A model generated the notes under the pieces. That model was not told the DNA's origin and did no database searches. It saw only the letters and a program-made list of their open reading frames with translations. The translations under genes and the position numbers were made by a program. Source: an uncultured Acidimicrobiaceae bacterium (GTDB taxonomy: Bacteria > Actinomycetota > Acidimicrobiia > Spongiisociales > UBA5794). From it: a stretch of DNA of 56,622 nt. Positions 1 through 56,622 of the stretch are shown piece by piece; position 1 is the stretch's first letter; the number at the start of each line of letters is the position of its first letter. Location: assembly GCA_964581295.1 (NCBI GenBank), contig CAZONX010000002.1, forward strand, positions 8,788 through 65,409, read 5' to 3'.

Positions 1-90
1 TACATCACACAACGAGGCGGGCCAGGCCCACCTCACACGAACATCTCGTTGCACAGCCGAGTATAGGCAAAGCCCGCGGGTGTCGTTGAG

Positions 91-229
91 AAGTAGGAAG
101 ACACAAGTATCAAGTAGCAAGACAGGAGTCCGAAGACTCGGGTCGCAGATCGCGAGACCCACCGGCACAGCGGTTTGGGTCTTGCTACTTGCTACTTACT
201 ACTGGCCGCTACTTGCTACTCACTACGAG
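91..229. repeat. Heptamer-built inverted-repeat element, family A copy 1
   Basis: The arms are 91-123 (AAGTAGG AAGACAC AAGTATC AAGTAGC AAGAC) and 179-229 (GTCTTG CTACTTG CTACTTA ...). There is a perfect 13-bp IR at 111-123 / 179-191 with a 55-nt spacer. The element overlaps the proS stop. Confidence 0.85.
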
Positions 230-1918
230 GGCAGCGAGCTCCTCCGCCGCGGTCTCTATCGCGAGTTCTGACTGCTCGCCGCTGGCTCGCACGGCCAGCT
301 CGACGATTCCATCGGCGAGGCCGCGTGGGCCGACGGTGACGCGGAACGGAATGCCGATGAGTTCGGCATCCGCGAATTTGACGCCGGGTCGTTCGGCGCG
401 GTCGTCGATCAACACATCGATTCCCGATGAGCGCAGATCTCCGTAGAGCTGGTCGGCGACCGTCATGGTGTCTTCGTCGTCGGGCTTCACCACGGTGATC
501 ACCACCTCGTAGGGCGCGATCGCCACGGGCCACACGATGCCCTGGTCGTCGTGGTTCATCTCGACGGCCGCAGCGAGGTTCCGTTCGACACCAATGCCGT
601 AGGAGCCCATCACCAGCGGCACCATGGCGCCTTCGGCATCGAGCACCGTGGCACCAAGGGCCTCGGAGAACTTCGTTCCGAGCTTGAAGATATGCCCGGC
701 CTCGATACCCCGCAGCACCTCGAGCGGCTCTCCGCAGACGGGACAGCCTTCGCCGACGACCACGGTGCGGAGGTCCATCCACGCGGTAACGGTGATGTCT
801 CTTGCGACATCGACCCCTCGAAGGTGGTGGTCGTCGAGGTTGGCCCCGGTGACCATGTTGGTCCGCTCTGCGAGCTGCAAGTCGGCGAAGACGCGCGGAC
901 CGCTAACCCCCACTGCGCCGAGGCTGCCGGCGTCGGCACCGAGGAGCTCACGGATCTCTTCGGGGTGGCCGGGGCGGGCCTCGACCGCACCGGTCTCATC
1001 GAGCAGCTTCTGTTCTTGGAGGTCGTGGTCGCCGCGCAGCAGCACAAGCACCGCCTCACCGTCGAGCACATACACGAGTGTCTTGACTTGGCGATCCCCC
1101 GGCGCACCGCCTTCGAACTCGGCAAGGTCTTTGATCGTGCGCACGCCCGGTGTTGGAAAGCGCTCGACTTCCGTAGACCCTTGCGGATCTTCGATTCGGG
1201 GCAGCGTGGACGTCGCCCGCTCAACGTTGGCGGCATAGTCGCAGGCCGAGCAGTGGGCGACGTCGTCCTCGCCGGCCGGCGACGGCACGATGAACTCAAT
1301 CGAGTCCGTTCCACCCATGGCCCCCGACGATGCCTCGACCGGAATAGCCGTCACGCCGATCCGCCGGAACACGTTCGAGTAGGCCGCGAAGTGGCGGTCG
1401 AACTGGAGGTCGAGGCCGTCGCCGTCGAGGTCGAAGCTGTACGAGTCCTTCATGGTGAACTCTCGCACACGTAGCAGCCCGGCTTTCGGACGTGCCTCGT
1501 CGCGGAACTTCGTCTGGATCTGGTACCAGAGCTGTGGTAGGTGCTTGTACGACGTGACCTCGGTGGCGATCGTGGTGAAGATCTCCTCGTGCGTCGGGCC
1601 GAGCACGGCATCGCCGCCGCGCAGGTCGTTCAGCTTGAAGAGGATCTCCCCCATGGTGTCGAACCGGCCGGTGCGCTCCCAGATCTCACGCGGGTGGAGT
1701 GCCGGCAGCAACAGCTCCTGTCCGCCGATCGCGTCGATCTCTTCTCGGATGATTGCGATGATCTTCGACCGGACCCGGTAGCCGAGCGGCAGCAGCGAGT
1801 AGACACCGGCCATGAGCTGACGGACGTATCCACCGCGCACCAGCAATCGGTGGCTCACGGCGTCGGCGTCGGCCGGGTCGTCTCGGAGGGTTGGGATGAA
1901 CGCCTGTGACCAACGCAC
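209..1918 (-). CDS. proS: Prolyl-tRNA synthetase (bacterial type)
   Basis: 569-aa ORF. N-terminus MRWSQAFIPTLRDDPADADAVSHRLLVRGGYVRQ and a class II core typical of ProRS. Stop TAG (209-211) and the last codons lie inside a heptamer repeat arm. Confidence 0.95.
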   Translation of the reverse strand: MRWSQAFIPTLRDDPADADAVSHRLLVRGGYVRQLMAGVYSLLPLGYRVRSKIIAIIREEIDAIGGQELLLPALHPREIWERTGRFDTMGEILFKLNDLRGGDAVLGPTHEEIFTTIATEVTSYKHLPQLWYQIQTKFRDEARPKAGLLRVREFTMKDSYSFDLDGDGLDLQFDRHFAAYSNVFRRIGVTAIPVEASSGAMGGTDSIEFIVPSPAGEDDVAHCSACDYAANVERATSTLPRIEDPQGSTEVERFPTPGVRTIKDLAEFEGGAPGDRQVKTLVYVLDGEAVLVLLRGDHDLQEQKLLDETGAVEARPGHPEEIRELLGADAGSLGAVGVSGPRVFADLQLAERTNMVTGANLDDHHLRGVDVARDITVTAWMDLRTVVVGEGCPVCGEPLEVLRGIEAGHIFKLGTKFSEALGATVLDAEGAMVPLVMGSYGIGVERNLAAAVEMNHDDQGIVWPVAIAPYEVVITVVKPDDEDTMTVADQLYGDLRSSGIDVLIDDRAERPGVKFADAELIGIPFRVTVGPRGLADGIVELAVRASGEQSELAIETAAEELAALVVSSK

Positions 1919-4604: not shown

Positions 4605-4651
4605 GTCGCCAGTCAAGACGCGATGGATCCGGTCTCGAGTCTTGCTACTTG
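4605..4651. repeat. Hybrid repeat element (family B 10-mer + family A 13-mer)
   Basis: GTCGCCAGTC at 4605-4614, CAAGAC at 4614-4619, and GTCTTGCTACTTG at 4639-4651 (identical to 179-191). Lies between the rseP stop and the ispG start. Confidence 0.75.
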
Positions 4652-4652
4652 C

Positions 4653-5810
4653 CTACAACTGGATCGGTTTGAAGATGTCGAGGTAGACGCCCATGAGTCC
4701 AACGGTGATGAGGAACACCACGACGACGGCGGCCACGGGCATGAGCTTGCGGATGTCGGGGACCCGACCGCGCACCTTCTCGTAGAGGGCCACCGCGAAG
4801 TGACCACCGTCGAGCGGATACAGCGGGATGAAGTTCAGAATGCCGACGAAGACGTTGACGAGGGCGAGAATCGTGAGCGTGGTCTCCATCGGTCCGGCGA
4901 GCCGCGCCAACCCGATCGGGCTGATCGGGCGAACCTCGTCCAGCACCTCGTCGCTCCCGCCGAACACCGAGACCACCAACTGGGGGAACCCGATGATCAT
5001 GCGGCCCAGGCCGTAGACACTTTGGCCGATCGCTTCCCATATCCCGCCAATGGTTGCTCCGGCGACCTCGACCGGGCCGAGCTGGTTTCGCTCGATCTCG
5101 GGGGCCGCCCCGAAATAGCCGACTTCTTCGTAGACGGGATCGCCGTTCTCGTCGGTGGCGACCTCATCGTTGACCTCGACGGGACGCTCCCGGAACGCGA
5201 GCGTCACATTCGCTTCGGCCACGGTGCCGTCTCGCAGGTAGCCGATGCGCACCGTCTCGCCGCCGTCCGCGGCGACTCCGTCGACGAACTCATCCCACGT
5301 TGCGACCGGAACGCCCTCATACGCCTGCACAACGTCGCCGGCCTCGAATCCGGCGATGACGCTCGGAGACACGTCTCCCGATGGTGTCTCGACGGCGATC
5401 ACTGCAATGGTCAACGACGGCACCGGATCGCCGGCCTCGTCTGTAGCAACTTCGCCCCAGGTCAGAAAGACGATGGAGAGAAGGATCGCCGCCATAACGA
5501 AGTGGCTGAAGACGCCGGCGAGCACGACGACCGACTTCTTCCAGAACACGGACTCGCGATACGTGCGGCCCTCGTCTTCCGGAGCGACCTCTTCGAACGG
5601 ATTCATACCGATGATCCGGACGTAGCCGCCGAGAGGAATCGCCTTGATTCCGTACTCGGTCTCGCCCCGTGTCGTGGACCAGATGCGGGGTCCGAACCCG
5701 AAGAACGCCTCGGTGGCTTTCATGCCGAACGATTTCGCCGCCACGAAATGCGCACCCTCGTGTATGACGATCATGGCGACGACGCCGATGATCATCACCG
5801 CGGTCCCCAT
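4653..5810 (-). CDS. rseP: M50 site-2 (RIP) zinc metalloprotease, RseP/Rip1-like
   Basis: HEGAHF (HExxH) in the first TM segment, a central PDZ-like region, a C-terminal NFIPLYPLDGG motif, and position between dxr and ispG as in Actinobacteria. Confidence 0.9.
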   Translation of the reverse strand: MGTAVMIIGVVAMIVIHEGAHFVAAKSFGMKATEAFFGFGPRIWSTTRGETEYGIKAIPLGGYVRIIGMNPFEEVAPEDEGRTYRESVFWKKSVVVLAGVFSHFVMAAILLSIVFLTWGEVATDEAGDPVPSLTIAVIAVETPSGDVSPSVIAGFEAGDVVQAYEGVPVATWDEFVDGVAADGGETVRIGYLRDGTVAEANVTLAFRERPVEVNDEVATDENGDPVYEEVGYFGAAPEIERNQLGPVEVAGATIGGIWEAIGQSVYGLGRMIIGFPQLVVSVFGGSDEVLDEVRPISPIGLARLAGPMETTLTILALVNVFVGILNFIPLYPLDGGHFAVALYEKVRGRVPDIRKLMPVAAVVVVFLITVGLMGVYLDIFKPIQL

Positions 5811-20894: not shown

Positions 20895-20963
20895 GAGTCG
20901 CCATTTGCCAGCAGAACCAAGCCCGCGGTCTCGGCCTGAGGACTGAGGACTGGCGACTACTCC
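20895..20963. repeat. Family B-type element with (CTGAGGA)2-CTGGCGA heptamers
   Basis: GAGTCGCCA at 20895-20903 pairs with TGGCGACTA at 20951-20959. AAGCCCGCGG box at 20919-20928. Heptamers at 20936-20956. Overlaps the trmD stop and sits in the rplS leader. Confidence 0.7.
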
Positions 20964-25393: not shown

Positions 25394-26254
25394 ATGCGCA
25401 TCGCTCCGTTGCTCGTGTCCGTCGCCCTCGCGGCTGCGGCATGCACGAGCACCGATGTGCAGGATGCCACCACGACTACCGAGGCTCTGGCCACGACGTC
25501 GACCGTTGCGTCCGACGCCCCGGCATGCCTCGCCGGCGAGATGCCGTTCGTCGACGATGGCACCGTCGCCGCTCTCGACAGCCAGGGCCAAGACGCCAAG
25601 GCCATCGGCGGCATTCGCTGGTACCCCCTCGAGGGGTGTGAACGCATTGAGATCGAGTTCCTCTCGGCAACAGGCGCTCCGGCGACGCGCATCGGGCCTG
25701 TCGGCGTGTCGATGCTGTCGGACCCCGGCATCGTTCGCGTCGCTTTGGCCGATGCCATCGTGGAATCGGCCGTGGCGGATACCACGCTCGACGGAACGCT
25801 CATCGAACACTGGTATGTGGTCGAGGACGGCGAGGACGGACTCGTCATCGACTTCCACTTGAACGAACGTGCCGCGGCGCGGGCGTTCACCACCACATCG
25901 CCAGCCCGGTTGGTGATCGACATGCGGCGAACCGGGGATGATCGACCCCTGGCATCGCCGCTGTCGAGAGGCGGCATCGTCCTGTTGAGTCCGAAGGGCG
26001 GCGTCGGCCTCTACCCGCTGCAGGTGGCCGGCTACGCGGCGCCAGAGATCGATGCAATTCGCATCCGACTGAGCGATCCGACGGGCGTCGCCATCGACCG
26101 GTCCGTCTCGACGCTTTCGGAGACCCATGTGTGGCATGCCTTCGGCGTCGCTCTGAACGACGGTCCTTCCGGCACCGTCGATCTGCTCGTCGGAACCGTC
26201 GACACCACCGGTGAACCGGTGTTCGGAATCGAAGTCCCCCTGGATCTGCCGTAG
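25394..26254 (+). CDS. Lipoprotein of unknown function (AMIN-like and Ig-like/Gmad2-like regions suspected)
   Basis: Signal peptide plus lipobox MRIAPLLVSVALAAAACTS, a Thr-rich linker, and a beta-rich body. The domain guesses come only from sequence resemblance. Confidence 0.7.
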   Translation: MRIAPLLVSVALAAAACTSTDVQDATTTTEALATTSTVASDAPACLAGEMPFVDDGTVAALDSQGQDAKAIGGIRWYPLEGCERIEIEFLSATGAPATRIGPVGVSMLSDPGIVRVALADAIVESAVADTTLDGTLIEHWYVVEDGEDGLVIDFHLNERAAARAFTTTSPARLVIDMRRTGDDRPLASPLSRGGIVLLSPKGGVGLYPLQVAGYAAPEIDAIRIRLSDPTGVAIDRSVSTLSETHVWHAFGVALNDGPSGTVDLLVGTVDTTGEPVFGIEVPLDLP

Positions 26255-26292
26255 AGAAGGAGCAAGACCAAAACCAGTTGGCTCCAACCCGC

Positions 26293-27678
26293 CTAGCCAC
26301 TCGAAGCGGCGGCTCCGCACAGATTCGGGGCTGCAACAAGCGGTGGGATGTCCAGGTCCCACAGCTCTCTCGCAAGATCGATGGTGGCGACGGCGCGGAG
26401 GGCGATCGAAGGGCCGATGGGAGTTCGATCGGGGTCGTAGCGCATGATGATGATCGATCCCATCGCTGCCGGGCCGATCTCCATGGTGGCATCGGTCACG
26501 CCCTCAGCGTCGACGGCCACCGCCCGCCCGTCGACGAACTGAACACCGACGTGTGCAGAATCGTGAGTCCCTGTGAGCGGCAGCAGCGATCCGCCACGGC
26601 GCGACTCCTGTGTCACATCAACAACGAACGCCTCGAGGTCACGAGCGCTAAGTTCGAGGTCGCCCTCGATCAGCATGCGTTCGATCGATTCGAGTGGTAC
26701 TTCGGTGGCCCGGGAATGCAGGCGGTGGCCGATGCTGAGTCGCGGGTTGAGCTCGGTGGGCAGGAATCCATCCCGCGTGCACACGCCGTCGATTCCGAAT
26801 CCGCCGAGGTAGCCGTGCCGCTCCGCCAGCAGGGTCCCGACCCGGCGCGCCGCCTGACGCATCGTGTCGCGGACGGCTGTTGGCGGATTCCAGAAGTTCG
26901 CGGCCTGCGCGTAGGCGAATTCGGGGAGCGACGCGTGGCGCAGGATGATCATCTCGATCGGCAGAAACACCGCCACTCCGTCGTTCGTGATGAATCCATG
27001 GATCGAGCACGGGATTCCATCGAGGAACGGCATCACACGCACGTCAACAGCATGATCGGCAAACCAATCGACCGCCGGCTTCACATCGGCGGGGCTGCGA
27101 ACCCAACGGGCGTACTCGCCGCCCCCATGCCATCCCTCGGTGTTGTCCGCCACCCAAACCGTGCCGAGATCCGACGCCAATGCGCTGGCAGCGTCGGCTG
27201 CCTCGTTCACCGGCACCACAACCGCGGGAGCGCGTCTGACCCCGGCGTCGTCCCACAGACGATCGACCGTCGTCTTGTCTTCGAGCGCACCCCACGACTC
27301 CGGGCGCGCTCCATAGACCGGCCTGCCGGCCAGGGTCGAGCAGCGGCTGAAGCCGGCGCCGAGCACCTGCGCCTCGTGATCGGGATCGAACGTCTCCACG
27401 GCGGCAAGCAGCTCGTCTGACGGCTGTTCGACCGATTCGAGGAACGCCCGGACGCCTCGCATCACTGTGTCCTCGCTCACCCGGGTGTAGTAGAACCGAT
27501 TGGCCTTCGGTAGGTCGCCCACGCCTTCGACGCCGGCCACGATCATCACCCCGGCAGCGCCCCATTCATCCAGTAGACCGGCCAGCGCGGTTGCCCCCGC
27601 CGCGGCGTCCGCGGCAAGAATCCACTTCCGATCGCGATGAAGGTCGGCGACATCGCTCTTCACCCGTTCGAGGTCCAT
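26293..27678 (-). CDS. ATP-grasp fold protein, function unknown
   Basis: 461 aa with a central VMPFLDGIPCSIHGF ... GYLGGFGIDGV ... LPTELNPRLS pattern like an ATP-grasp C-terminal lobe. Monocistronic. Confidence 0.6.
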   Translation of the reverse strand: MDLERVKSDVADLHRDRKWILAADAAAGATALAGLLDEWGAAGVMIVAGVEGVGDLPKANRFYYTRVSEDTVMRGVRAFLESVEQPSDELLAAVETFDPDHEAQVLGAGFSRCSTLAGRPVYGARPESWGALEDKTTVDRLWDDAGVRRAPAVVVPVNEAADAASALASDLGTVWVADNTEGWHGGGEYARWVRSPADVKPAVDWFADHAVDVRVMPFLDGIPCSIHGFITNDGVAVFLPIEMIILRHASLPEFAYAQAANFWNPPTAVRDTMRQAARRVGTLLAERHGYLGGFGIDGVCTRDGFLPTELNPRLSIGHRLHSRATEVPLESIERMLIEGDLELSARDLEAFVVDVTQESRRGGSLLPLTGTHDSAHVGVQFVDGRAVAVDAEGVTDATMEIGPAAMGSIIIMRYDPDRTPIGPSIALRAVATIDLARELWDLDIPPLVAAPNLCGAAASSG

Positions 27679-27772
27679 AGGAAGAGCCTACGCCCGATCG
27701 CCCGACCGAGCCCTCAGGCCGTCGGTAGCCGGTAGTCGCCCAGCACGCGCCTCCTCCCGCTCTGCGCGTCTC

Positions 27773-27918
27773 CTCCCCATCAGGGGGAGTTGGCAGCGCC
27801 GCCAGGCGCTGACGGAGGGGGTCAAACAGATCCCGTCACGATCCCCGGCGCTTTGGCGCAGGTTCTTCCGTCCCCCAAACTGCGTTGGGGGGACGCGAAT
27901 CCGCTCCCGCGGATGCGC
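27773..27918. other. Cluster of four GC-rich hairpins in non-coding DNA (candidate structured RNA or REP-like cluster)
   Basis: The four stems are CTCCCC/GGGGAG (27773-27789), CAGCGCC/GGCGCTG (27794-27811), CGTCCCCCAA/TTGGGGGGACG (27869-27895) and GCGAATCCGC/GCGGATGCGC (27895-27918). GCGGATGCGC is repeated at 27933-27942. Confidence 0.45.
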
Positions 27919-27966
27919 AGGGGGGCTGTGTTGCGGATGCGCGGGGCTCGGGGACCGAGGAGTGTC

Positions 27967-28422
27967 CAGCAACAGGCGCTGTCCTCGGAGCTGCTCGAGT
28001 CGCTCGTCGCCGAGCTGTTCGGCTAAGCCGGCGACTGGTTCAACGGTGACGACGCCATCGGCAGCCTCGACGTGATCTGGAACAATGCCCTGAGCGACGG
28101 TCGCGCCATCAAGCCACGCATCGGACTTTTCAGCGTCATTGTCGACGCTACAGCCCTCGATGAGTCACTCCGCACGATGTGGCGCAGCACCGTCACCCAG
28201 TCCCGGATGGACGCGACCGCCGAAGCGATACGACGCGACCAGGTCGCCGGTGGGGTCCGGCCAAGCCTCGATCCCGATGCCACCGCACTCGCCCTCACGC
28301 TGATGAGTGAACAGTTCGCCCTGGAGGTACTCGGACGCCAGGAGGCCGAACCCGAACAATGCGCCGCGATTCTTACGCCCATCTGGGACGCCGTTCTCTT
28401 CGGTGTCGACAACTCCGGTTGA
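27967..28422 (+). pseudogene. TetR-family regulator remnant (ligand-binding C-terminal domain only, in-frame TAA at 28024-28026)
   Basis: The frame-1 product ...DPDATALALTLMSEQFALEVLG...ILTPIWDAVLFG looks like a TetR C-terminal domain. No HTH is encoded in any upstream frame, and the same frame is interrupted by a stop. Confidence 0.5.
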
Positions 28423-30505: not shown

Positions 30506-30600
30506 AACCGCAGCACTCAAAGGCGGCAGCGAGTTCGCTGTGCTGCTGCCCATGGGGCCCTGGACGCGAGCGGTGCCCGATTGTGAACGGGCCGCTTCTT

Positions 30601-30617
30601 GACTGGCGACCGGCGAC
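30601..30617. repeat. Family B fragment (GACTGGCGAC CGGCGAC)
   Basis: The 10-mer GACTGGCGAC is identical to 20948-20957 and is the reverse complement of 4605-4614. Lies in the convergent gap between the NAT gene and icmF. Confidence 0.55.
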
Positions 30618-41203: not shown

Positions 41204-42151
41204 ATGGCGACCTGGGTATTCAGCGAGGAAGCCGAAGGACACGCATCTGCGTCCGCCCTCGAACTCGTCACCAAGGCCCGCACAAGCGGAGAAACTGCCG
41301 TATTCCACATCGGAGCAGGCAGCCAGGCCGCGATCGCCGAACTCGGAGCGCACGGAGCGACGAAGGTGTTCCACATGGCGACCGACGAGCACCTGCCGTC
41401 CGCCACAGCAGCCGCAGCGCTCGCCTCCCTCGTGGAAGAGCACGGAGTCGACCTGATCCTCTTCGGCATGGGCAACACCGACCGCGACGTCGGTGGGCGC
41501 CTCTCGGCGCGCCTCGGACGGCCGGTCCTCGGCAACGCCGTCGACGTGTCCGAAGAGCCGCCGATCAGCGTCACCAGCGAGATCCTCGGTGGAACCGAGG
41601 CCGTCGTGACGGAATTCACCGGAGGCGCTCCCGCCATCGTATTTGTCCGGTCAAAGGCGTTCACCGCCGAACCGAACGACGGCGCGGCCCCGGGGGTCGT
41701 AGCGGTTGCGGCGCCCGACGTCGGCAGGTCGGGAACGGCCGTCGTCGTCGAGTCGCACGTCGAAGAGAGCGAGGGCCCCGATCTCGAGGCCGCTGCGGTG
41801 GTCGTGGCCGGTGGGCGCGGCGTCGGGAGCGAAGAGAAGTGGAGCGTGGTCGAAGACCTCGCAACCCAACTCGACGCTGCAATCGGCGCGACTCGAGCAG
41901 TCGTCGATGCCGGATGGGTGCCGGCCCGCCTTCAGGTCGGACAGACCGGCAAGACCGTCAAGCCCGGCGTCTACATCGCCGCCGGTGTCTCGGGCGCAAT
42001 GCAGCACCTCGTGGGCATGAAAGATTCGGGAACGATCATCGCCGTCAACAAGGACGCCGAAGCCCCGATCTTCGCCGTGGCCGACCTCGGCATCGTGGGA
42101 GACCTGCACCAAGTTCTGCCAAAGCTCATCGAGGCACTCAAAGAGAAGTAG
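41204..42151 (+). CDS. etfA: Electron transfer flavoprotein alpha subunit
   Basis: C-terminal FAD-binding region [28 protein letters not shown]. The stop TAG lies inside a heptamer repeat. Confidence 0.93.
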
Positions 42152-42256
42152 CAAGTAGCAAGTAGCAAGACGAAGACAGGGTCAGCCGAAACTCCTGCTC
42201 GACGACGGGGCGATGGGCCCGGTCTTGATACTTGCTACTTGTGTCTTGCTACTTCT
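42146..42256. terminator. Heptamer-built inverted-repeat element, family A copy 2 (candidate bidirectional terminator)
   Basis: (AAGTAGC)3-AAGAC at 42146-42171 pairs with GTCTTGATACTTGCTACTTG... at 42222-42256 over a ~20-bp imperfect stem with a 50-nt spacer. It sits between convergent etfA and cdd, and both stop codons lie in the arms. Confidence 0.6.
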
Positions 42257-42650
42257 TCTCGCTCAGGTCTTCCGGCCCAAACGACCGAGGCAGAAGGTCT
42301 TCGAGGCTGTATTCGACGGGGGCTCCGGTTTGATCGGTGAGGATGACGCGGCGGACGCGGAACTCTCGCATGATCTGCCGGCAGTTGCCGCACGGCGAGC
42401 AGGCTTCCCCGTCGAGACAGGTCACCGCCACGGTGTCGATCTCTCGGACGCCGTTTGCCGCCGCGTTCGTGATCGCGTTCGCCTCGGCACAGATCGACGC
42501 GCCGAAGGCGGCGTTCTCCACATTGCATCCCGTGTACTCGGCACCGTCCGGTGCCACGATCACGGCTCCGACGCGGTAGCTGCTGTAGGGCGAATACGAC
42601 TGCTCAGCCGCCGCTGCGGCTTTGTCGATGAGTCTCTGCTGCTCGTTCAT
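42249..42650 (-). CDS. cdd: Cytidine deaminase
   Basis: CAEANAI and PCGNCRQ zinc motifs; 133 aa. ATGA overlap with the ftsY stop. Its own stop lies in a heptamer repeat arm. Confidence 0.93.
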   Translation of the reverse strand: MNEQQRLIDKAAAAAEQSYSPYSSYRVGAVIVAPDGAEYTGCNVENAAFGASICAEANAITNAAANGVREIDTVAVTCLDGEACSPCGNCRQIMREFRVRRVILTDQTGAPVEYSLEDLLPRSFGPEDLSEKK

Positions 42651-47157: not shown

Positions 47158-47193
47158 GACTCTGGGTCGCCAGTCGCCAGTCCGGAGTCCGGA
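47158..47193. repeat. Family B heptamer array (GTCGCCA)2(GTCCGGA)2
   Basis: Perfect tandem 7-mers at 47166-47193, preceded by GACTCTGG. Lies between the rnc stop and the smc start. Confidence 0.8.
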
Positions 47194-53662: not shown

Positions 53663-53875
53663 GTGCAGGGCGTCGTCAAGGTCTATGACCCCGGATCAGG
53701 GGTTGGCGTGATCGTGCGCGACGACGACCGATCCGAAGTCTATCTGCGGCCCGGCTCCCTCGATGGCTCGATGTTCCGCATGTTGCGCCAGGGCCAGCGC
53801 GTAGTCTTCGACACCGACGACGATGCGGGCCGCCTCTACGCCCGTGACCTGCGCTTCGGCGCGGACGGCTACTAA
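53663..53875 (+). CDS. Cold-shock-domain-like small protein (divergent)
   Basis: GTG start 3 nt after the rpmB stop. GVVKVYDPGSGVGVIVRDD ... VYLRPGSL ... GQRVVFD follows the CspA topology, but the RNP aromatic residues are replaced. Confidence 0.5.
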   Translation: MQGVVKVYDPGSGVGVIVRDDDRSEVYLRPGSLDGSMFRMLRQGQRVVFDTDDDAGRLYARDLRFGADGY

Positions 53876-56535: not shown

Positions 56536-56622
56536 CCAGTCGCCAGTCGTCAGTCGTCATTCTGGCGTCTGGCGTCTGGCGTCTGGCGTCTGGCGTCTGG
56601 CGTCTGGCGTCTGGCGTCTGGC
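56536..56622. repeat. Tandem heptamer microsatellite (CAGTCGY)3 + (CTGGCGT)8+, truncated by window end
   Basis: There are eight perfect CTGGCGT units at 56562-56617, plus a partial ninth that runs off the sequence. Confidence 0.95.

Follow-up and report, generated by a model that had tools for sequence, protein, structure and literature searches.

A palindromic heptanucleotide repeat family overlapping stop codons in an Acidimicrobiia-like bacterium

The window analyzed here is a stretch of 56,622 nt from an uncultured Acidimicrobiia-like bacterium (contig CAZONX010000002.1, positions 8,788 to 65,409), and all the coordinates given below refer to it. At the 3' end of the proS gene, positions 87-229 carry heptamer arms in inverted orientation around a spacer (element 1). 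This feature is a copy of a palindromic heptanucleotide simple-sequence repeat (SSR), of the same kind as the STRR repeats of cyanobacteria and the GGGAATC repeats of Xanthomonas. It is probably one member of a genome-wide family of such repeats, driven by slippage and forming a hairpin at the 3' ends of transcripts.

The element at the proS 3' end and its copies in the window

Element 1 is organized as follows:

87-123, plus strand: purine-rich arm, facing the rimP side, with AAGTAGG AAGACAC AAGTATC AAGTAGC AAGAC at 91-123
124-178: spacer of 55 nt, rich in G+C, with three small stems, GAGTC-TTCG-GACTC among them
179-229, minus strand: pyrimidine-rich arm on the proS side, bearing the proS tail VVSSK and its TAG stop at 209-211

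On the window strand, the right arm (179-229) reads GTCTTG CTACTTG CTACTTA CTACTGG CCG CTACTTG CTACTCA CTACGAG, which corresponds on the proS sense strand to GTAGTGA GTAGCAA GTAGC GGCC AGTAGTA AGTAGCA AGTAGCA AGAC. Both unit strings had been read in the same way in a preliminary description of this DNA, and checking the sequence confirmed them, as well as the statement that the last codons and the stop of proS are written in the repeat: the gene (209-1918, minus strand) ends with GTA GTG AGT AGC AAG TAG within the right arm. A period of 7 was detected at 181-203 by Tandem Repeats Finder. The fold of the 80-240 region amounts to -63.9 kcal/mol (z -3.7, none of 200 shuffles being as good) and includes small GC stems in the spacer, as previously described. 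Genes in the window were predicted from codon usage, the called genes of L001 and L117 serving as the training set, and the predictions reproduce the public calls. The rimP gene lies past the start of the window, as seen in L117, a longer contig from the same population, in which rimP and another co-directional gene, presumably nusA judging by its position and with no Pfam call, are located 221 nt further on. The context of element 1, between the proS stop and the rimP side, is therefore co-directional in that contig.

At least three copies of the repeat, plus a fourth, degenerate one, are present in the 56 kb. The 13-mer GTCTTGCTACTTG or its complement occurs exactly at 111-123 (minus strand), 179-191 (plus), 4639-4651 (plus), and 42159-42171 (minus), so that the pair and the recurrences reported in the preliminary description are exact. 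When up to two mismatches are allowed, there are 10 matches in the window versus 0.43 expected, a number reached in none of 100 shuffles. The likeness noted previously between 42222-42254 and 91-123 was recovered by a repeat finder, in which 89-126 and 42219-42256 are 89% complementary across 38 nt, and the other arms, 179-203 and 42147-42171, are 96% complementary across 25 nt. The copies other than element 1 are:

42143-42171, plus strand: arm of element 2 on the etfA side, (AAGTAGC)x3 AAGAC; the first unit supplies the TAG (42149-42151) at which etfA stops
42172-42221: spacer of element 2, 50 nt of unique sequence
42222-42256, minus strand: arm of element 2 on the cdd side; the TAG of its first unit serves as the cdd stop (42249-42251)
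4612-4651, minus strand: element 3, a short copy, CAAGTAGCAAGAC, a 19-nt loop, and GTCTTGAC
26253-26292, plus strand: possible degenerate copy, TAG AGAAGGAGCAAGAC ... GTTGGCTCC, with a two-mismatch match to the 13-mer at 26256-26268

Element 2 (42143-42256) separates the convergent genes etfA and cdd, and both stops lie inside its arms: the two genes end with AAG TAG, each TAG belonging to an AAGTAGC unit. Its cdd-side arm reads AAGTAGC AAGACAC AAGTAGC AAGTATC AAGAC on the cdd sense strand, a period of 7 was found by Tandem Repeats Finder at 42146-42169, and the fold of the 42130-42270 region amounts to -63.2 kcal/mol (z -5.0). Element 3 begins 1 nt past the TAG stop (4653-4655) of an M50 peptidase gene, upstream of ispG/gcpE, while the degenerate copy follows the TAG stop at 26254 and is flanked by the convergent genes 25394-26254 (plus) and 26293-27678 (minus). 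The general architecture is an (AAGNNNC)n array, a unique spacer, and a (GNNNCTT)m array, which abut or overlap the stops of proS, the M50 peptidase gene, etfA, and cdd. Between elements 1 and 2, the spacers show no similarity (p 0.29 and 0.86).

No Rfam family matched the window at the gathering score, in the comparison that the preliminary description had proposed, and at E values of up to 1 the sole hits of the two elements were sub-threshold ones between miRNA precursors and the long hairpin. A BLAST search of the element against plasmids gave no match, and neither target-site duplications nor fixed ends were visible at the element borders. A scan for consensus promoters and terminators was negative, with no terminator-like sites in 1-400 or 42000-42400; elements 1 and 2 were not scored as intrinsic terminators because they have no T-run. 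These data bear on whether the elements are ordinary bidirectional intrinsic terminators, the stems of which are repetitive by chance. In favor of this, the hairpins are strong and lie at the 3' ends of genes, often of convergent pairs, and the purine-first, pyrimidine-last order of the arms mimics their A-tract/U-tract layout. Besides the negative scan and the lack of a T-run, however, the overlap with the stop and the last codons is atypical, some arrays occur in 5' regions, and ordinary terminators show neither a 7-nt periodicity nor copy-number polymorphism nor units common to several loci, which makes this explanation improbable.

Variation between strains and turnover between species

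Loci showing 98.6-99.96% identity with the window were collected from independent ENA, NCBI, and Logan assemblies via exact-protein look-ups. The etfA-side array of element 2 consists of three units in the window and in five other contigs, five units in L005 and L008, five including a variant fifth unit in L010, and at least six units in L007, the contig of which ends within the array. In its proS-side arm, element 1 has one AGTAG-type unit fewer in L117 and L118 than in the window. The differences between strains consist of whole 7-nt units and affect one arm at a time.

A scan of the JGI metagenomes based on EtfA yielded 80 loci. In relatives showing 75-86% EtfA identity, cdd is still convergent to etfA, and the hairpin between them is made of other heptamers:

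L120 and L133: CCGAGAC/TTGAGAC versus GTCTCGT
L129: ACGAGAC versus GTCTCAA/GTCTCGA
L126 and L137: CCGAGAC versus ATCTCGG
L127: AAAGAGC/AAAGACA versus CTTTGTT/CTTTGCT
L125: GAGTAGA versus TCTACTC
L123, L124, L128, and L130: GGTAGCT-type arrays on one side

The z-scores of the folds at this locus range from -4.4 to -7.7 in L120, L127, L133, L134, and L137, and are weaker (about -0.2 to -3.4) in L123, L124, L125, L128, L130, and L131. No array is present between etfA and cdd in L119 (86% EtfA identity), and in three of the relatives with at most 69% EtfA identity in which cdd is retained downstream, 18-23 nt separate the two stops and there is no hairpin. The C-terminus of the cdd product varies along with the array (PEDLSEKK, PEDLE, PEDLD, PEDLER, PEDLG, and PADLQ, each followed by the stop). 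At the etfA/cdd locus, the period, the inverted symmetry, and the purine-first polarity therefore persist between species while the unit sequence turns over. Since the units of several relatives are one or two substitutions away from AAGACAC or AAGTAGC, concerted evolution in place is the simplest reading.

The claim that this is a dispersed family and not a one-off hairpin is borne out by the three to four loci in the window. The idea of an element of fixed sequence, however, has to be abandoned, because the spacers are unrelated, the strains differ by 7-nt units, and the orthologous locus carries other heptamers. A MITE with a conserved core was likewise ruled out, given the dissimilar spacers, the lack of duplications at the borders, and the turnover in place at the orthologous locus.

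Other repeats were encountered at or near these loci. In L128, a 54-nt hairpin-pair segment (1004-1057) downstream of etfA is 87% identical to part of window 27680-28070, a long and very G+C-rich divergent intergenic region (-206.8 kcal/mol over 411 nt), and similar GC-rich hairpins inserted at the etfA locus were seen by eye in L124, L130, and L132; this hairpin may be a second, unrelated dispersed element. EtfA contigs at 61-63% identity (L184/L186, 1415-4489; L168, 1482-1584) contain many long arrays of other heptamers, such as TCCGGCA x15, AGTAACC x10, CGCAATA, and GCAATTG, heptamer-rich genomes thus being sporadic among these sediment bacteria.

Position with respect to genes, reading frames, and polarity

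The positions relative to stop codons, the tabulation of which had been proposed in the preliminary description, were determined at the 33 gene 3' ends that have a family-A (AAGTAGC) arm no more than 60 nt away. In 17 of them the arm begins upstream of the stop or on it, and in 10 it begins 4-15 nt downstream of the stop. The stop is TAG at 20 of these 33 ends versus 79 of 241 other genes (Fisher p 0.003). Among the 36 intergenic regions of high-G+C loci that contain the exact 19-mer AAGTAGCAAGTAGCAAGAC, 10 are convergent, 17 tandem, and 1 divergent, and 8 lie at contig edges; two of those counted as tandem, L027 and L093, are really divergent, so that the number of divergent regions is 1-3.

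The three frames of (AAGTAGC)n read K-stop, SSK-stop, and VASSK-stop, and all of them stop within six codons. Tails of the SSK-stop type occur in unrelated genes (L028, L032, L059, L077, and L111), and the VVSSK tail of proS, which is the third frame with one substitution, can be attributed to this property, all the (AAGTAGC)n frames ending in TAG within six codons. Where both arms belong to family A, the purine-rich, TAG-bearing arm is the 5' one in 18 of 18 cases (p 8e-6), and the pyrimidine-first order was never found. Transcripts and ribosomes arriving from either side therefore meet all-frame stops first.

In the related MAGs L027 (665-800) and L093 (705-830), (AAGTAGC)n AAGAC is followed by (ACGGAMT)n in the region separating two divergent genes, a few nt ahead of a start codon; some copies are therefore neither at 3' ends nor palindromic. 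The syntenic part of the window (about 17.7-18.2 kb) has no array and differs in gene content.

Distribution in other genomes and alternative origins

The exact 19-mer was found in more than 106 stretches of GTDB species genomes, about 4 being expected by chance. Among the matches listed, several metagenome-assembled genomes (MAGs) of Acidimicrobiia/Actinomycetota carry it on 5-8 contigs each, and it also occurs in Chloroflexota, Burkholderiales, Acidiferrobacterales, Vicinamibacterales, Patescibacteria, Omnitrophota, Cyanobacteria, and many Bacteroidota, cultured isolates included. The locus of L027, an Acidimicrobiia MAG, is syntenic with the window (75% identity), which is the basis for calling the host Acidimicrobiia-like, and the isolate genomes carrying the 19-mer include those of Olivibacter domesticus DSM 18733, Pontibacter mangrovi, Pelobium manganitolerans, and Hyella patelloides. 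The preliminary description had set the phylum against a likeness to the STRR repeats of cyanobacteria, an argument that fails because the 19-mer itself spans many phyla. In 709 kb of fetched loci, the arrays of at least three exact units comprise 120 with period 7, 31 with period 8, and at most 16 with any other period; 63 of the 120 period-7 arrays are made of heptamers other than AAGTAGC.

Chance similarity or an assembly artefact is hardly credible as an explanation. Contigs do often break inside arrays (L003, L007, and the end of the window), but the shuffle statistics oppose chance, the same loci were recovered from independent assemblies differing in unit number alone, and the 19-mer is present in the genomes of cultured isolates.

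In viral contigs, (AAGTAGC)3 occurs at 7 loci versus 4-28 for five other heptamer trimers, so that arbitrary heptamer arrays are far above chance there and AAGTAGC is not privileged. None of the 6 distinct, unselected arrays (seven loci, three of which are near-identical) is followed by AAGAC, and the counts of the 19-mer and of a control ending in AAGCA in these contigs (1 versus 0) are too small to discriminate.

These distributions have to be weighed against the possibility that the repeat is mobile but non-autonomous, in the manner of REP/REPIN or MITE sequences: an enzyme acting in trans, such as a RAYT-like Y1 transposase, would copy a GTAG hairpin to further gene ends, and slippage would modify the copies later. 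Horizontal spread would explain why the same AAGTAGC/AAGAC arrays exist in many phyla. In its favor, the 19-mer far exceeds expectation, the same unit family is found at three to four loci in the 56 kb and on several contigs of related MAGs, the units contain GTAG, and the absence of AAGAC after the viral arrays hints that the AAGTAGC-AAGAC junction marks a specific subfamily. GTAG is the tetranucleotide conserved at the 5' ends of REP sequences. However, the copies have no common internal sequence, no duplications or fixed ends were seen, the orthologous locus shows a gradual turnover of units in place and not presence or absence, and there is no transposase among the Pfam-called genes, which amount to about half of the genes of the window. 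In addition, arbitrary trimers in viral contigs have counts broadly similar to that of (AAGTAGC)3, which makes a recurrent, independent origin plausible. Mobility of this kind is therefore, in our opinion, unlikely. A dedicated trans-acting system with a 7-nt footprint (a single-strand-binding protein, or a hairpin nuclease or transposase) might also make or spread the hairpins and install genome-specific units at gene ends, the family having moved between phyla; we consider this doubtful to a similar degree. If it were true, AAGTAGC/AAGAC would be a pan-bacterial, mobile 'stop-and-hairpin' cassette that has moved horizontally across Actinomycetota, Chloroflexota, Pseudomonadota, Acidobacteriota, Bacteroidota, Cyanobacteria, and Patescibacteria.

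Alternatively, the arrays might be bound by a protein with affinity for single-stranded nucleic acids and a 7-nt footprint, such as a cold-shock-domain or other OB-fold protein. It would coat the pyrimidine arm, open the hairpin, and so allow read-through or mRNA decay at the ends of genes to be adjusted, with temperature for example. CspB of Bacillus subtilis binds one heptanucleotide per monomer, with the consensus GTCTTTG/T and strong preferences for C at position 3 and T at 2, 4, and 6 (PMC1904285). The pyrimidine-arm units resemble this consensus (GTCTTGT and GTCTTGC in the window, GTCTCGT in L120 and L133, TTCTTTG in L127), and a footprint of this kind would explain both the period of 7 regardless of the unit sequence and the strict polarity, the pyrimidine-rich arm being always 3' in transcripts from either side. 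The window also encodes a divergent cold-shock-domain protein at 53663-53875 (plus strand; Pfam CSD 32.3 bits, cut-off 27), which consists of 70 aa, lacks the usual aromatic RNP1, and has SGVGVI in place of KGFGFI. Nevertheless, the likeness to the CspB consensus, from which the binding is proposed, is partial, the GGTAGCT, TCTGGCG, and TACGGAC families do not fit it, nothing ties the gene to the repeats, and the sporadic occurrence of heptamer-rich genomes contrasts with the near-universality of Csp proteins. This reading seems to us quite improbable.

Other heptamer arrays were observed in the window and elsewhere. Positions 56537-56622, where the window ends, hold a second heptamer family, preceded by GGCAAGACAGAAGATCCGAGAC; it consists of (CCAGTCG/TCAGTCG)x3 and then (TCTGGCG)x8.9, which runs off the end. 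The window probably stops here because the array could not be bridged during assembly. Short intergenic arrays forming a 'family B' with the core CGCCAG/CTGGCG are located at 47166-47193 (GTCGCCA x2 and GTCCGGA x2), 20936-20958 (CTGAGGA x2 and CTGGCGA), and 30590-30612 (GACTGGC GACCGGC). Contigs from independent assemblies end in or beside heptamer arrays (L003, L007, L118, and both the start and the end of the window), the end of L118 coinciding exactly with the first base of the window; heptamer arrays thus fragment the metagenome assemblies of this lineage. In L021-L115, trains of heptamers and octamers occupy nearly every intergenic region of the H07xxx-L1_cleanbin contigs (about 50% G+C), which the binning had assigned to gut taxa unrelated to each other (Leyella, Segatella, Erysipelotrichaceae, Acutalibacteraceae, Flexilinea, and Azospirillum) and resemble the IMG/VR viral contig L284. 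These contigs may be one phage-like or mis-binned entity.

Formation and possible role of the repeats

According to the slippage-driven SSR reading favored here, the arrays would grow and shrink in 7-nt steps via replication slippage, while the arms would be held roughly complementary either by hairpin-templated repair or template switching or by selection for pairing. Arrays might creep onto the ends of open reading frames (ORFs) solely when the proximal arm supplies stops in all three frames, a constraint which would account for the TAG-bearing arm being always proximal and for the K, SSK, and V(A/V)SSK tails. In the transcript, the structure would be a 3'-end hairpin without a U-tract, stabilizing or insulating the mRNA between neighboring genes, and by analogy with the REP elements of enterobacteria, it may hinder the terminating ribosome.

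Several observations weigh against this reading. Neither element scores as an intrinsic terminator, and the role at the 3' end of the transcript is one that we infer. The sense and antisense folds of 14 copies transcribed one way showed no consistent bias, and there is therefore no evidence for selection at the RNA rather than the DNA level. The hairpin is not universal, since in some copies, such as that of L088, the arms are made of different units that pair at just 4-5 of 7 positions, and the arrays upstream of genes in L027 and L093 have no partner arm. Local slippage alone explains neither the presence of one unit family at many loci nor the period of 7. Lastly, the polarity cannot be due to stop-codon tolerance alone, because the GGGAATC repeats of Xanthomonas show it without stops.

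Whatever the mechanism, this lineage provides a natural experiment in which a hairpin is placed exactly on the stops and its proximal arm terminates all three frames. One locus can be traced from an empty state, via several heptamer vocabularies, to a 7-nt polymorphism between strains, and the arrays rewrite the C-termini of proteins, as in the case of proS and cdd.

Comparison with known repeat classes

The REP/BIME (REPIN) sequences of enterobacteria and pseudomonads are imperfect 3'-end palindromes present in many copies, with genome-specific families and a GTAG motif; they stabilize the 3' ends of mRNAs and may disturb the termination of translation near the stop codon. The repeats described here are similarly imperfect palindromes at gene 3' ends with many copies per genome and a GTAG motif. 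REPs, however, are single fixed palindromes of 20-40 nt tied to RAYT transposases, whereas the present arms are arrays of 7-nt units, and no RAYT was seen among the Pfam-called genes of the window. With variable arrays as arms and unrelated spacers, the present copies do not have a conserved fixed-sequence palindrome like that of the REP/REPIN class.

Heptanucleotide repeats have been recognized in bacterial genomes since 1990. The cyanobacterial STRR heptamers CCCCAGT, TTGGTCA, and CAACAGT were reportedly described in that year by Mazel et al. Like the STRRs, the present repeats are tandem heptanucleotides dispersed in non-coding DNA, highly variable, and able to extend helices. They differ from the STRRs in their unit sequences and phylum, and neither the strict placement at stop codons nor the all-frame TAG is known to have been described for the latter; with the units AAGTAGC, AAGACAC, and AAGTATC and an Acidimicrobiia-like host, they are not STRRs in the strict sense. 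An STRR is reported to be located inside the RNase P RNA gene (Vioque, 1997), and three heptanucleotides have been mentioned in Calothrix PCC7601 (PMC4692102). The preliminary description was thus right in taking STRRs as the nearest concept, but not in restricting the class to cyanobacteria, since families are present in Xanthomonas and Nostoc (PMC4692102) as well as in Beggiatoaceae, Cyanobacteria, and Bacteroidetes (PMC4679880).

In most genomes, heptanucleotides are the most abundant long simple repeats, and polymerase slippage has been proposed (Mrazek et al., 2007, cited in PMC4679880). The TAACTGA arrays of Beggiatoaceae, Cyanobacteria, and Bacteroidetes are mixed with other heptamers, differ between strains by 7-nt indels, and have no evident transfer mechanism, and Csp or S1 was suggested for them (MacGregor, 2015; PMC4679880). 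They share with the repeats studied here the occurrence of one heptamer in unrelated phyla, the mixed trains, the 7-nt indels between strains, and the stop codons within the unit. In the BOGUAY genome of Beggiatoaceae, however, the TAACTGA arrays are direct and lie mostly just upstream of starts, whereas those described here are palindromic and lie at stops.

Two Xanthomonas genomes contain 186 and 183 GGGAATC arrays, 89-93% of which are intergenic, at a mean distance of 28 nt from the upstream ORF versus 160 nt from the next one; 70-75 convergent pairs were counted, just 7-8% of the arrays are between divergent genes, the length and sequence differ between the two species, and no function was found (Rehm et al., 2015; PMC4692102). 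Like these repeats and the GGGGAYT repeats of Nostoc, which number hundreds of loci, those described here have a 7-nt unit, occupy mostly intergenic, dispersed loci nearer to the end of the upstream ORF, form many convergent inverted pairs in which the purine-rich arm leads, are seldom found between divergent genes, and vary in length and sequence at the same locus between close relatives. They have the features of the intergenic heptanucleotide SSR class as a whole: at least two tandem, imperfect 7-nt units; one unit family at many non-coding loci (three to four in the window, and 5-8 contigs per related MAG); a variable number and sequence of units among close relatives at one locus; and a location close to where the upstream ORF ends, frequently in convergent inverted pairs, with few copies between divergent genes. 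In contrast to the Xanthomonas and Nostoc repeats, the units here are AAGTAGC/AAGACAC, bear TAG, and overlap the stop and the last codons in an Acidimicrobiia-like host, and no G-quadruplex is possible because they are not G-rich. A full-text search found no indexed paper on repeats of the AAGTAGC family, so that a match to a described family, which the preliminary description had considered as a possible outcome, exists for the kind of repeat and not for the unit sequence. The kind is already known, and what is new here is the unit sequence, the host, and the exact placement on stop codons.

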